NCBI GenBank assembly: GCA_041490825.1
Contig: JBGPTW010000002.1
Coordinates: forward strand, 28,445-92,444
Direction of reading: 5' to 3'
Length of the DNA stretch: 64,000 bases
Source: Candidatus Methylomirabilia bacterium
GTDB lineage: Bacteria; Methylomirabilota; Methylomirabilia; Rokubacteriales; CSP1-6
Part shown: positions 1 through 10,445 of the stretch, piece by piece
How positions within the stretch are numbered: the stretch's first letter is position 1
How the letters are laid out: each line of letters starts with the position of its first letter
The notes under the pieces: model-generated
Databases searched by the model: none
Told to the model about the DNA's origin: nothing
The model's input: only the letters and a program-made list of their open reading frames with translations
Made by a program: the position numbers and the translations under genes

Positions 1-45
1 CTGAGGGAGCACTGGGGCGACGTGGAGATCATCCACCTTACCTGA
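1..45 (+). CDS. 3' end (14 codons, ...LREHWGDVEIIHLT*) of an upstream gene running off the window; function unknown
   Basis: Open frame from window edge to TGA at 43-45, followed by GAGGAG SD of next gene; too short to identify. Confidence 0.3.
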   Translation: MREHWGDVEIIHLT

Positions 46-100
46 GTCCGGGAGCGGGGCGGTCGCAGCACGCGACCAGCACGCATCTGAGGAGTGAGGA

Positions 101-3100
101 ATGACCAACCACGAACGCGTCGGCAAGGCGCTGGAGCTCTTGAAGAGCGGCCTCGGGCCCTTCGTCGAACGCGAGTTTAAGAACGCGTACCAGGATCGCG
201 CCGCCGCCGAGGCGGGCAGGTTCATGGGCGAGGATCGCCTGAACGCGAAGCGGCCGGTGGCAGACTGGGACGTAGCCGCGCTCCTGAAGCTCATGTGGGA
301 CTCGTGGAACGACGTCTTCCGCAAGACGCTCGGGCCTGCCGAGCGTAGCCTCCTGAGCGAGTTGCGCGACCACCGCAACAAGTGGGCGCACCAGCAGGCC
401 TTCTCCGGCGACGATGCCTACCGCGCGCTCGACTCGGCGGGGCGACTCCTCACCGCCGTCTCGGCGCCGCAGTCCGACGAGATCGAGAAGGTGAAGATGG
501 AACTCCTGCGCCTGCGCTTTGATGAGCAGGTGCGCGGTGAGAAGCGCAAGAGCGCGGGCACGGCCATCGAAAGCACGGCAGCCAGCAACCTCAAGCCGTG
601 GCGCGAAGTGGTGACGCCGCACAAGGACGTGGCGAGCGGCCGCTACCAGCAGGCCGAGTTCGCGGCGGACTTGTGGCAGGTGCATCTCGGTGAGGGCACG
701 GACGAATACCGGAACCCGGTCGAGTTTTTCCGCCGCACCTATCTCACCGAGAGCCTGAAGCGCATGCTGGTGGGCGCTGTGCGGCGTCTCGCCGGCCAGG
801 GCGGCGACCCGGTGGTGCAGCTCCAGACCAACTTCGGCGGGGGCAAAACGCACTCGATGCTGGCGCTGTATCACCTGTTCTCAGGTACGGCACTGGGCGA
901 GCTTGCCGGCGTCGACGCCGTGATGCAGGAGGCCGGGGCGAAGACGCTGCCCACCGCGCGCCGCGTCGTGCTGGTGGGTAACAAGATCTCGCCCGGCAAC
1001 CCGGTCACCAAGCCCGACGGCACGGTGGTGCGCACCCTGTGGGGTGAGCTGGCCTGGCAGCTCGGCGGCAAGAAGGCGTTTGCGCGGCTCAAGGCCGACG
1101 ACGAGAAGGCGACCAGCCCGGGCGACGTGCTGCGCGAGTTGTTCAAGGAGTACGGCCCGTGCGTGGTTCTGATCGACGAGTGGGTGGCCTACGCGCGCCA
1201 GCTCCACGATCAGAGCGACCTGCCGGCGGGCGGCTTCGAGACGCAGTTCACCTTCGCGCAGGCGCTCACCGAATCGGCGAAGCTTGCGAAGAACTGCCTG
1301 CTGGTGATCAGCCTTCCCGCCTCGGACGCCGAGCCTTCACCCCACACCCAGGCGAATGACGTCGAGGTGGGCGGCCAGCGTGGACGCGAGGCGCTCGACC
1401 GCCTGCGCAACGTCGTCGGGCGCGTCGAGTCCTCGTGGCGGCCGGCGAGCGCCGAGGAAGGGTTCGAGATCGTGCGGCGGCGCCTCTTCGAGCCGCTGGC
1501 CGACCCGGCGCAGTTCAAGGATCGCGATGTGGTGGCGCGGGCCTTCGCTGACTTCTACCGCACGCAGCACCAGGAGTTTCCGCCCGAGTGCCGCGCCGCC
1601 GACTACGAGAAGCGGATCAAGGCGGCGTACCCGATCCACCCGGAGATCTTCGACCGGCTCTACACCGACTGGTCGACGCTGGTGAAGTTCCAGCGCACGC
1701 GCGGCGTGCTGCGTCTGATGGCGGCGGTGATCCACAGCCTGTGGGAGAAGGGGGACAGGAACCCCCTCATCCTGCCGGCGAACATCTCGATCGACGATCC
1801 GCGCGTGCAGTTCGAGCTGACGCGCTACCTTTCGGACAACTGGGTGCCGGTCATCGAGAAGGACGTGGACGGCCCGAACTCGCTTCCCCTGCGCATCGAT
1901 GGTGAGATGGCCGGGACCCTCGGCAGGTTCGCGGCGTGCCGGCGCGTGGCGCGCGCGATCTACCTGGGTTCGGCGCCGACAGCCGCCGCAGCCCACCGCG
2001 GCCTTGAGGACCGGCAAGTGAAGCTCGGCTGCGTGATGCCGGGCGAGTCGCCGGCGGTCTTCGGCGATGCGCTGCGCCGGCTGGCGGCTGCGGCCACGTA
2101 TCTCTATCAGGACGGGCCGCGCTACTGGTACTCGACGCAGCCCACGGTGACGAAGCTCGCCGAGGATCGCGGCGAGCAGCTCAGGCGCGATCCGGACAAG
2201 ATCGTGCAGGAGATCGACGCGCGCCTGCGTGCCGACCTGCGCAAGACCGGCGACTTCAGCCGCATCCACCCGCTGCCGCACACCGGTCAGGACGTGCCCG
2301 ACGATCTCGACGCGCGGCTCGTCGTGCTCAGGATCGACCATCCCTACAGCAAGGAGCCAGGAAGCACGGCTGACACCGCCGCCAAGGCGATCCTCCAGTC
2401 GCGAGGCAACACACCGCGCCTCTACCGCAACACGCTGGTCTTCCTCGCCGCCGACAAGACACGGCTGCAGGACCTCGACGAGGCGGTGCGGCGGTACCTC
2501 GCGTGGGAGTCGATCCTGGCCGAAAAAGAGACGCTTGATCTCTCACCGCACCAGGTGAAGCAGGCGGAGACTCAGCGGAACGCCGCCGACAGTGCGGTGA
2601 CGGCGCGGCTGCCGGAGACGTACCAGTGGCTGCTCGTGCCTGTGCAGAGCTTGCCGCAGTCGGCGGTCGAGTGGCAGGCACTCCGGCTCTCGGGGCAGGA
2701 TGCGCTCGCCGTGCGCGCGAGCAAGAAGCTGCGGAGCGACGAGCTGCTGGTGACCAGCTTGGCCGGCACGCCGCTGCGGATGGCCCTTGACCGCGTGCCC
2801 CTCTGGCGTGGCGACCATGTGCCGATCAAGCAGCTCGCCGAGGACTTCGCCCGCTATCTCTACCTGCCGCGACTCAAGGACTCGTCGGTGTTACTCGGCG
2901 CCGTCTGCGATGGCGTCTCGCTCCTCACGTGGGAGCAGGACGCCTTCGCCTTCGCCGACAGCTTTGACGAAGGGGCGGGCCGCTACCGCGGTCTGCGCGG
3001 TGGGCAAAACATCACCCTCGCGGACGCCGATGCGCCCGGACTGCTCGTGAAGCCGGACGTCGCGCGGCGACAGCTCGATGCCGAGAGCGTTAAGCCGTCC

Positions 3101-3436
3101 GCTGGTGTGGGGCCCGCCGGGCCTGGCGTCGGAGGCGAAGGAACGACGCCGACAGGAGCGGGCGCTGGCCCGACTGGAGCACCTGCGCCTGTGGCGGCGC
3201 AGCCCAAGCGCTTCCACGGTACCGTCACCCTGGATCCCGCCCGCGTGGGCCGCGACGCCAGCCGCATCGCCGACGAGGTAATCGCGCATCTCTCGGGCCT
3301 CGTCGGCGCGAAGGTCAAGGTCACGTTAGAGGTGGAGGCTGAGATCCCTTCCGGTGCGCCAGATCACGTCGTGCGCACCGTCACCGAGAACAGCCGGACT
3401 TTGAAGTTCACGAGCCAGGGGTTCGAGAAGGAGTGA
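101..3436 (+). CDS. Swt1-like HEPN domain fused to DUF499-family P-loop ATPase (component of DUF499/DUF1156 R-M-like defense systems)
   Basis: N-terminus has the R-x4-H HEPN motif (RDHRNKWAHQ); GGGKTHS Walker A and VVLIDEW Walker B; 1111 aa length and overall layout typical of DUF499; GAGGAG SD 7 nt upstream of ATG. Confidence 0.8.
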   Translation: MTNHERVGKALELLKSGLGPFVEREFKNAYQDRAAAEAGRFMGEDRLNAKRPVADWDVAALLKLMWDSWNDVFRKTLGPAERSLLSELRDHRNKWAHQQAFSGDDAYRALDSAGRLLTAVSAPQSDEIEKVKMELLRLRFDEQVRGEKRKSAGTAIESTAASNLKPWREVVTPHKDVASGRYQQAEFAADLWQVHLGEGTDEYRNPVEFFRRTYLTESLKRMLVGAVRRLAGQGGDPVVQLQTNFGGGKTHSMLALYHLFSGTALGELAGVDAVMQEAGAKTLPTARRVVLVGNKISPGNPVTKPDGTVVRTLWGELAWQLGGKKAFARLKADDEKATSPGDVLRELFKEYGPCVVLIDEWVAYARQLHDQSDLPAGGFETQFTFAQALTESAKLAKNCLLVISLPASDAEPSPHTQANDVEVGGQRGREALDRLRNVVGRVESSWRPASAEEGFEIVRRRLFEPLADPAQFKDRDVVARAFADFYRTQHQEFPPECRAADYEKRIKAAYPIHPEIFDRLYTDWSTLVKFQRTRGVLRLMAAVIHSLWEKGDRNPLILPANISIDDPRVQFELTRYLSDNWVPVIEKDVDGPNSLPLRIDGEMAGTLGRFAACRRVARAIYLGSAPTAAAAHRGLEDRQVKLGCVMPGESPAVFGDALRRLAAAATYLYQDGPRYWYSTQPTVTKLAEDRGEQLRRDPDKIVQEIDARLRADLRKTGDFSRIHPLPHTGQDVPDDLDARLVVLRIDHPYSKEPGSTADTAAKAILQSRGNTPRLYRNTLVFLAADKTRLQDLDEAVRRYLAWESILAEKETLDLSPHQVKQAETQRNAADSAVTARLPETYQWLLVPVQSLPQSAVEWQALRLSGQDALAVRASKKLRSDELLVTSLAGTPLRMALDRVPLWRGDHVPIKQLAEDFARYLYLPRLKDSSVLLGAVCDGVSLLTWEQDAFAFADSFDEGAGRYRGLRGGQNITLADADAPGLLVKPDVARRQLDAESVKPSAGVGPAGPGVGGEGTTPTGAGAGPTGAPAPVAAQPKRFHGTVTLDPARVGRDASRIADEVIAHLSGLVGAKVKVTLEVEAEIPSGAPDHVVRTVTENSRTLKFTSQGFEKE

Positions 3437-9605: not shown

Positions 9606-9796
9606 TCGATGGCGGTAGCCGCGTGTGTCGTCTTCGGCAGACGAACCCCCACTCGATCGATTTGGTTCGAGCGTGGTTCCAACTCACCCAAATTCAGTCG
9701 GCACAGCACGATGCAGGCCACCTCACCACCCCTCGGAATCTCGCGCGCTTGCATCGCCGTGCATGTCAGTGCGCGGGTCGCCGGGCTCACTGCCAG

Positions 9797-10208
9797 TCAG
9801 AAAGCGAGCGCCCGCTCGAGCGCGCCGGCCTCGACCTCTTCCAGCGCATAGCGGACACGAAGCATGGGAGGCTTCACGCGAAGCCTCCGGCGAAGGTCGA
9901 TGGGCGTGCCGAGCAACACGACGTCGCATGGCACGGCGTCGATCGTCTTCGCGAGGTCGTCGATCTGGGTCGTGCTGTACCCCATGGCCGGAAGGACGGG
10001 GCCGAGCGACGGGAAGGTGGCGAACGTGTCGCGCAGGCTTCCCGAGCACCCGGCGCCCCGCCAGCGGCACGTCACTCTCGAGCTGGACCGGCAAGCGTGT
10101 GTCGACGATGCGCGCGGTCGGATTGAGCGCGCGGATTGCCACGCGGGTGGCTTCGATCGCGGCCGCTGGCGCCGTGTCTTCTTTGACGACCACCGCGACA
10201 TCGGCCAT
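9797..10208 (-). pseudogene. Small hypothetical protein (about 137 aa) with an apparent frameshift
   Basis: Protein-like N-part MADVAVVVKEDTAPAAAIEATRVAIRALNPTARIVDTRLPVQLE in one frame and C-part SLRDTFATFPSLGPVLPAMGYSTTQIDDLAKTIDAVPCDVVLLGTPIDL...ERALAF in another; junction in a GC homopolymer-rich stretch near 10040-10060. Confidence 0.4.
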
Positions 10209-10445
10209 CCGGAGATTCGTTTCGCCCGGATGATAAGTGTCTTCGTCATGATGGCGACAGCCGAGAGCAACTCGAATGCCACGCTCGATTCCAGGAATTT
10301 CGCTGGATGAACGGGGAGTCACCGTCCCACCTGGGGCGGAGGTCCCCGGCCCCGGGCCGGTCATCCTGCCCATGTCCCTGAAATGGCGACGCGGCAAGCC
10401 TGGCACCGGGGTTGCTCATTGCTCGATGGACCGGAGGCCAAGGCG

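Follow-up and report, generated by a model that had tools for sequence, protein, structure and literature searches.

How did several anti-phage systems of differing base composition come to stand next to a cluster of universal stress protein (Usp) genes? This question is raised by the first 10 kb of a 64,000-nucleotide stretch of contig JBGPTW010000002.1 from a Candidatus Methylomirabilia bacterium (the whole stretch is called the window here), in which positions 1-10300 had been read from the sequence as a compositionally heterogeneous defence island (the original prediction). This reading was borne out, and it was extended by the identities of the modules and by a gene map of the upstream DNA. 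The region 1-10300 is very probably the right part of a chromosomal defence island of ~23 kb that was built piecemeal within a stress-gene neighbourhood regulated by sigma-54. The contig is assigned to the chromosome because the window also encodes a ribonucleotide reductase and sigma-70. Defence islands are reportedly groups of anti-phage systems located in parts of the genome that vary. The locus is a typical example of this well-known phenomenon, and all of its modules are known or candidate systems.

Gene order and composition of the island

The DNA to the left of the window was read from the JGI contig Ga0534150_0000056 (145,665 bp; pieces L014 and L016), which is near-identical to the window (identical save one single-nucleotide polymorphism (SNP) at window position 894). 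A window coordinate equals the L016 coordinate minus 17594. The island spans approximately window positions -12,960 to +9,600/10,400, and the window holds only its right-hand ~10 kb. Its earlier placement at 1-10300 was right for the right part, but position 1 is the window edge only and not the left start. The order from left to right is PDC-M41, HmaA, SIR2-HerA, HmaB, PDC-M45, HmaC, a PANGU-like pair, the stump of a regulator gene and IetA-IetS, with the elements from PDC-M41 to PDC-M45 in the ~13 kb to the left of position 1. At least six known or candidate anti-phage systems (PDC-M41, Hma, SIR2-HerA, PDC-M45, PANGU-like and IetAS-like) are present in ~23 kb, which is the clustering of distinct systems within tens of kb that characterizes a defence island. 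A mosaic composition deviating from that of the host was also found, in that five modules are low in GC and HmaC is not.

The GC content was predicted to step from high to low to intermediate and back to high, and these steps were confirmed by 500-bp sliding windows, by segment z-scores calculated against equal-length background windows (mean GC 0.683) and by the GC content at third codon positions (GC3). The 500-bp windows over 3251-5500 have a GC content of 0.564-0.612, the minimum of the whole 64 kb, against a mean of 0.682 (standard deviation 0.024) in the rest of the window. The HmaC segment (101-3436) has a GC content of 0.686 (z +0.3), the PANGU-like pair (3463-5469) 0.586 (z -6.7; none of the background windows is this low), the spacer at 5470-6057 0.692, the IetAS segment (6058-9605) 0.650 (z -2.9; 0.2% of background windows are equally low), the segment 9606-10382 0.660 and the Usp genes 0.692. 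To the left of the window, SIR2-HerA has a GC content of 0.571 (z -9.2; GC3 0.63-0.64), and PDC-M45 and PDC-M41 have z-scores of -5.0 and -3.2, respectively. The GC3 background is 0.846 +/- 0.029 (19 well-supported flanking genes), compared with 0.884 for HmaC, 0.67-0.72 for the PANGU-like genes, 0.80 for IetA and 0.77 for IetS. Together, the five low-GC modules have GC3 values of 0.63-0.80 and z-scores of -2.9 to -9.2. Elsewhere in the window, a second low-GC patch (0.60-0.64) at 51600-53100 contains small or doubtful open reading frames (ORFs) only.

The genes hmaA, hmaB and hmaC encode a SNF2-type helicase, a DUF1156 N6-methylase and a DUF499 AAA+ ATPase, respectively, and their presence in one locus identifies an Hma / type-1 BREX-related system. 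The gene hmaC (101..3436, plus strand) is the last gene of this system; hmaA and hmaB are located upstream of the window. HmaC matches Pfam DUF499 and, with 1183 bits, the PADLOC HmaC profile (positions 2-940 of 941). Residues 9-121 match Pfam HEPN_Swt1 over the entire profile (129 bits, 1-115 of 115), and such an N-terminal HEPN domain on the DUF499 ATPase is a common Hma variant. HmaA and HmaB score 1705 and 1580 bits, respectively, with the PADLOC profiles, both near full length. The HEPN-fused DUF499 ATPase variant of the type-1 DUF499-centred BREX-related (BR) system has been described previously (PMC12839542). The present system resembles that reference in its helicase, methylase and HEPN-DUF499 ATPase, all with strong full-length matches, but differs in that the three core genes are split by two low-GC cassettes, SIR2-HerA and DuOB-DUF488-DUF488 (PDC-M45).

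Nested in the Hma operon, between hmaA and hmaB, is the SIR2-HerA cassette. Its two genes overlap by 4 nt, and SIR2 and HerA match the PADLOC profiles end to end with 315 and 623 bits, respectively, so that a defence-type SIR2 and HerA stand in one operon as in SIR2-HerA systems. It differs from the reference SIR2-HerA system in that the pair is nested in the operon of another system, and the stop codon of HerA overlaps the start of hmaB (ATGA). In two sequencing runs, the Logan contigs (L018 and L019) begin ~180 nt upstream of SIR2 and stop 100-145 nt downstream of HerA, so that both cassette ends lie close to a contig break (L016 9820-13130; window -7774 to -4464). Co-existing variants that lack the cassette are one possible cause of these breaks.

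The PDC-M45 cassette is located between hmaB and hmaC, and the 3' end of its third gene, encoding a DUF488 protein, occupies window positions 1..45 on the plus strand. This gene starts 392 bases 5' of the window (L016 17202-17639 = window -392..45), and its product matches PADLOC PDC-M45C over its full length with 252 bits. Nothing useful on DUF488 or DuOB in connection with defence was found in the literature searched. The module PDC-M41 consists of a DUF5131 protein and TcmP. The arrangement hmaB-DuOB-DUF488-DUF488-hmaC was also found in two Thermoanaerobaculia metagenome-assembled genomes (MAGs; L021 and L022) at 84-85% nucleotide identity. Homology to L022 (85%) ends at window position 3437, the first base past the hmaC stop codon, with other neighbours beyond, and in L021 the hmaC block is followed by unrelated genes (CrcB, MerR and others).

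The PANGU-like pair, the regulator stump and the IetAS-like pair

The original prediction had noted a clearly lower GC content at 3.4-5.5 kb, in a region with three defence-type modules. This segment does have the lowest GC of the 64 kb; to judge from its sequence, it is a type I PANGU-like operon with a pseudogene effector, a more specific description than the one first given. The gene pag1A (4423..5469, minus strand) encodes a YejK/NA37 nucleoid-associated protein of 348 amino acids (aa) (Pfam NA37 58 bits, cut-off 24.6), and pag1B (3463..4426, minus strand) encodes a frameshifted toxSAS, a RelA/SpoT-type nucleotide pyrophosphokinase that matches Pfam RelA_SpoT after repair. The stop codon of pag1A overlaps the start codon of pag1B (ATGA, 4 nt), and the gene arrangement of type I PANGU, a YejK-like gene with a toxSAS gene no more than 40 bp downstream, is thus present. 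Pag1A matched no solved structure by sequence. A 607-aa ORF with a TTG start (4423-6246) was rejected, and the 348-aa gene at 4423-5469 fits both the homologue lengths and the Pfam coverage.

Type I PANGU consists of a nucleoid-associated sensor, Pag1A, and a GRel toxSAS, Pag1B (bioRxiv 10.64898/2026.04.06.716658). Pag1A is a DNA-clamping YejK-like protein that is freed when phage nucleases degrade the chromosome; freed Pag1A activates Pag1B, which produces (p)ppGpp and leads to abortive infection, and anti-phage activity dependent on both genes has been reported for other PANGU members (bioRxiv 10.64898/2026.04.06.716658). The present pair is like type I PANGU in having a YejK/NA37-like gene followed by a translationally coupled RelA/SpoT-type synthetase gene, in its position in a defence island, and in the N-terminal placement of the catalytic domain in the synthetase, whose C-terminal domain (121 residues) is mildly acidic with an isoelectric point of 4.8. 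It is unlike the reference in that pag1B is frameshifted.

The frameshift in pag1B (+1) stems from a single additional A in the run at 4249-4252 and cuts off the N-terminal 59 residues. Dropping one A joins the frames into a 320-aa protein, which scores 64 bits with RelA_SpoT over the whole domain, compared with 28 bits for the 243-aa fragment. The repaired Pag1B is similar to the small alarmone synthetase YjbM in the PDB (E 8e-18) and aligns over residues 1-320 with an intact 320-aa homologue in the close relative L025 at 77% identity. The 243-aa fragment is also encoded on contigs of five other sequencing runs. All assemblies seen share the frameshift, and the intact effector of type I PANGU is lacking here; because pag1B is frameshifted, the PANGU-like system is probably inactive in this population.

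Pairs of NA37 and RelA_SpoT genes, in this order and with an intact second gene (319-327 aa), were found in L025, in the Dehalococcoidia MAG L027 and on a Streptomyces linear plasmid, where Pag1A is 84%, 56% and 31-32% identical at the aa level, respectively. The PANGU-like proteins have close homologues in Chloroflexota, Actinomycetota and Armatimonadota as well as on a plasmid. The pair has a lower GC content than its flanks in all three genomes examined (three different hosts). Nucleotide homology between the window and L025 is restricted to window positions 3470-5502. In L025 and L027 the pair is located within a few kb of a gene for an SbcC/Rad50-type ATPase (6062-9503, with SbcD too, and 4977-7544, respectively), a proximity that may be either coincidence or a recurrent association.

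To the right of the PANGU-like module, positions 5626..5827 (plus strand) hold the 3' stump (~67 codons, winged helix-turn-helix) of a gene for a sigma-54-interaction AAA+ regulator, as identified by comparison with the variant strain L029. This strain is 92-94% identical to the window at the nucleotide level, with homology starting at ~5626, and carries directly upstream of IetA an uninterrupted sigma-54-type regulator ORF of at least 230 aa that ends in the stump sequence (Pfam Sigma54_activat 83 bits, AAA_lid_14 66 bits). Since the regulator is uninterrupted in L029 and homology begins at ~5626, the PANGU-like module appears to have replaced the 5' part of the regulator gene. Four Logan runs have contigs that end at 5563, and a contig of another begins at 5610; these breaks are consistent with a variable junction and are no proof of one. 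A weak PADLOC match of 5600-5827 to the C-terminus of a SoFic-type Fic protein (E 1e-4) was rejected, L029 showing this to be the end of a sigma-54-interaction regulator. L029 lacks ~93 nt (5910-6002) of the stretch that separates the regulator stump from the IetA start.

The genes ietA (6058..7044, plus strand) and ietS (7065..9605, plus strand) encode an IetA-like AAA+ ATPase and an IetS-like subtilase (S8 protease), respectively. IetA matches PADLOC IetA with 256 bits (profile 3-319 of 374) and Pfam AAA with 112 bits, and IetS matches Pfam Peptidase_S8 with 200 bits and PADLOC IetS with 134 bits. The start of ietS is at 7065 in the Logan call and at 7254 in the JGI and NCBI calls. IetAS is reportedly a defence pair of an AAA+ ATPase and a subtilase, and the adjacent ATPase and S8 protease genes found here, both matching PADLOC profiles, agree with this composition. 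The NCBIfam scores of 210 bits for IteA and 67.5 bits for IteS fall below the equivalog cut-offs of 510 and 900 bits, respectively, and the pair is therefore classified as a divergent IetAS-like one. Unlike the IetAS reference, the pair is divergent and in L029 a sigma-54-type AAA+ regulator gene stands directly upstream of it. In the MAG GCA_041482695.1, an extra C in the C-run at 6358 frameshifts IetA into pieces of 103 and 190 aa; this reflects either genuine decay within a subpopulation or a mistake in the assembly.

Probable piecemeal assembly and its alternatives

Three independent comparisons show homology breaking at or near module borders, namely at 3437 (L022), at 3470-5502 (L025) and at ~5626 (L029), and pseudogene scars are present at both island edges and at the internal junction. 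The original prediction counted three defence modules and one gene remnant; the modules stood, but the remnants are several, namely the frameshifted pag1B, the regulator stump (5626-5827), the pseudogene of a GTPase (9797-10325) and, at the left edge, the stumps of a C11 peptidase gene and an HTH_8 gene. The breaks near module borders, the stumps at the edges and the lack of a tRNA gene, attachment site or integrase together argue that the island was assembled piecemeal. The locus resembles defence islands in its tightly packed unrelated systems, uneven composition, decayed genes and cassettes nested in cassettes. It differs from defence islands generally in that no mobile-element hallmarks were found, in its neighbourhood of a sigma-54 stress regulon and in between-genome variation seen at a single junction only (L029).

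Several observations weigh against the piecemeal account. The window, L014 and L016 (81.6 kb) yielded no tRNA or tmRNA gene, no att-like repeat longer than 11 nt is shared by the two island edges, and an integrase is missing from the Pfam families listed for the called genes of the island and ~12 kb of its right flank (L001, L014 and L016); beyond this flank, the rest of the window was scanned in part for integrases. Upstream, the sequence examined reaches to ~5.9 kb from the contig start. The searchable collections yielded no close relative in which the site is empty or holds other cargo, and the distant relative L013 is too distant and too rearranged to represent a true empty site. HmaA, HmaB and HmaC are compositionally host-like (GC3 0.82-0.88). 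PDC-M45 is AT-richer than its surroundings in L021 too, and because its low GC recurs in a second lineage, part of the uneven composition may be intrinsic to the genes rather than evidence of recent transfer.

The hallmarks of an integrative island (an integrase or recombinase, a tRNA gene or attachment site, and flanking direct repeats) are thus lacking in the sequence examined. Neither the integrase nor the tRNA gene that the original prediction had looked to in the upstream contig was found in L014/L016, and neither piece has an Rfam match. A scan of GTDB representative genomes with Usp293, a protein of the right flank, gave matches of 26-27% only, and its nearest homologue is 67% identical. 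Three contigs with Usp293 identities of 65-67% (L013, L020 and L024) were rejected as empty sites because they are too distant, too rearranged or too short. L013 carries the Usp pair and its sigma-54 site with no island genes within 10 kb in a rearranged gene order. One junction alone is polymorphic, where the regulator of L029 is uninterrupted and the window carries the PANGU-like module. As no empty site was seen, we infer acquisition from the composition and the breakpoints. The locus may be a hotspot, as the original prediction had it, with indirect support from the homology breaks near module borders, the lack of the PANGU insertion in L029 and the decay scars.

It is very unlikely that the whole island came in a single event on an integrative or mobile element, with its integrase and attachment sites outside the examined sequence or decayed and the mosaic pre-formed in the donor. 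Such an event would agree with the contiguity of all the defence genes, with the pseudogene stumps at both outer edges and with the movement of the Hma and M45 block as a unit in other lineages. It is opposed by the absences just described (no tRNA gene in 81.6 kb, no att-like repeats between the edges and no integrase in the Pfam lists of the island and near flank), by the regulator stump of host-like composition inside the island and by L022, which carries Hma without PANGU or IetAS neighbours. Moreover, L029 has the regulator whole next to IetA, so that the PANGU insertion, at least, must have been separate and later.

Vertical inheritance of an ancestral region, in which the GC differences reflect gene-specific constraint (e.g., AT-rich defence genes kept by selection), is highly improbable. 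The host-like GC3 of the three Hma genes, the AT-richness of PDC-M45 in L021 and the lack of any mobility genes seen speak in its favour, but homology to other genomes stops at or near module borders with differing neighbours beyond, and the close PANGU-like homologues are spread over three other phyla and a plasmid. In addition, the regulator truncated here is uninterrupted in L029, and L013 lacks island genes near its Usp pair.

The chance that the mosaic is an assembly chimera of DNA from different organisms is extremely remote: the source is metagenomic, and Logan contigs are interrupted near 5563/5610 and where the SIR2-HerA cassette begins and ends, but JGI Ga0534150_0000056 and NCBI JBGPEG010000004.1 agree at 99.85-100% across all junctions, a third NCBI contig (150,684 bp) is recorded as encoding the window's own proteins, and Logan contigs of other runs span HmaC/PANGU (2419-5563), stump/IetAS/GTPase/Usp (5610-13603) and HmaA-end/SIR2-HerA/HmaB-start. 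The contig of MAG GCA_041482695.1 (23.8 kb) is 99.85% identical to the window and has the same gene order. The mosaic is not an assembly artefact, and the predicted juxtaposition of defence modules of differing composition holds in the same order in the JGI and MAG assemblies.

Under piecemeal assembly, a sequence of events can be proposed. The Hma genes, being compositionally host-like, would be either old residents or derived from a compositionally similar donor, and IetAS would have arrived after them. The PANGU-like module would have arrived late, replacing the 5' part of the sigma-54-type regulator gene, and pag1B would later have been knocked out by the one-base insertion. Old host genes (C11 peptidase, regulator tails and GTPase) would persist as stumps at the junctions. 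This order and the functions of the individual systems are inferred, the functions from family literature and general knowledge. By analogy, Hma would separate self from foreign DNA by methylation, together with helicase, ATPase and HEPN effector functions, and SIR2-HerA would act by NAD+ depletion. In PANGU as a family, release of Pag1A on chromosome degradation would trigger (p)ppGpp synthesis by the toxSAS, and the infection would be aborted.

Island edges, stress-gene flanks and implications

The right edge had been placed at 9606-9800 next to a frameshifted small gene. The frameshifted gene is real and is a decayed gene for a 'predicted GTPase' on the minus strand (9797..10325), 5'-truncated and frameshifted. 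Its merged frames match 'predicted GTPase' proteins with 55-60% identity over 90-99% of the merged length, and the alignment shows that the N-terminus and ~33 internal codons have been lost. The stump may be either old host DNA or debris brought with the cargo. The most similar homologue among those aligned, P0280 (ENA, from a 1402-bp contig; 60% identical in the search and 68% when aligned), is likewise short at 179 aa and lacks, in frame, a similar but larger internal segment. Three gene calls in this DNA, which is explained by the GTPase pseudogene, were rejected, none of them matching a family: orf80 (9609-9851) has atypical codon-position GC and GC3, the translation of orf148 (9864-10310) looks wrong-frame, and the 213-aa JGI call (9723-10364, minus strand) has atypical GC3. 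Inside the pseudogene, a sigma-54-like site with one mismatch (10266-10281, minus strand) may have arisen by chance or may mark a divergent promoter.

The putative sigma-54-type promoter of the Usp operon, TGGCACCGGGGTTGCT, is located at 10401..10416 on the plus strand and is the sole perfect match to the sigma-54 consensus in 64 kb. The site is followed on its 3' side by a GGAGG ribosome-binding site and by the ATG at 10446, and it lies 30 nt upstream of the first Usp gene. As this promoter starts the conserved flank by ~10400, the right limit of the island falls within 9606-10400; the boundary does lie to the right of 9606, but it cannot be placed more narrowly than this. The Usp cluster is the right border that had been predicted, with the GC content back to 0.692 and the promoter opening the conserved flank.

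The three Usp genes (10446-10886, 10906-11787 and 12069-12953, plus strand) belong to the right flank, outside the island; their products match Pfam Usp with 125-160 bits, and their GC3 is 0.83-0.85. A 167-aa JGI Usp call starting at 10383 is over-extended, the real start being 10446. The Usp145-Usp295 pair is kept in L013 at 65% aa identity with no island genes nearby. In the MAG contig L015, ~158 extra nt and a cluster of SNPs relative to the window are found at ~11890-11900, after Usp293, which makes this gap between the second and third Usp genes locally variable.

L013, whose Usp293 is 65% identical, has a sigma-54 site with one mismatch 56 nt upstream of its Usp pair. Its sigma-54-like sites (9344-9359, 8357-8372 and 15530-15545) precede the Usp pair, an operon for a hibernation factor and a P-type ATPase gene. 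Other stress genes of L013 encode a BON protein (83% identical) and a P-type ATPase and an acyl-ACP synthetase (60-72%). In the window, 30 matches to the sigma-54 consensus with two or fewer mismatches were found, against 17.8 +/- 4.1 expected, and this excess together with the L013 sites makes the stress cluster look like a sigma-54 regulon.

Both flanks of the island carry genes of stress or dormancy type. The right flank (10383-27938) contains, besides the three Usp genes, genes for an FtsH paralogue, PadR, ChrA, a BON-domain protein, a ribosome hibernation factor, cytochrome c and several P-type cation ATPases. The left flank (L016 1-3641) encodes a PAS-LuxR regulator and an 846-aa P-type ATPase, both with host-like GC, and this ATPase is 34% identical to those at the right. 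The left junction zone spans ~1 kb and holds a C11 peptidase pseudogene, which is frameshifted and has lost its 5' end, together with a weak Fis-type helix-turn-helix tail (HTH_8).

The eight co-oriented, tightly spaced genes hmaA-sir2-herA-hmaB-duOB-duf488-duf488-hmaC might form one co-transcribed composite system and not three independent ones, or the island might be wired into the sigma-54 stress/dormancy regulon, both being unlikely. If the composite were real, BREX-related methylation and recognition machinery would control, or be backed up by, the NAD+-depleting SIR2-HerA and the DUF488 proteins. The fixed position of PDC-M45 between hmaB and hmaC in three lineages hints at an accessory role in Hma / BREX-related systems.

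The locus leaves current understanding unchanged, and its value lies in cataloguing and in picking candidates for testing. It is a clean, well-resolved case of defence-island building from a poorly studied, uncultured lineage, with breaks near module borders, nested cassettes and host-gene stumps at junctions. It provides a natural type I PANGU-like operon, of a system described only in 2026, that appears to be a recent arrival and has already lost its toxin by a one-base insertion. The frameshift in pag1B, together with the one variant with a frameshifted IetA, illustrates the rapid gain and loss of abortive-infection genes.

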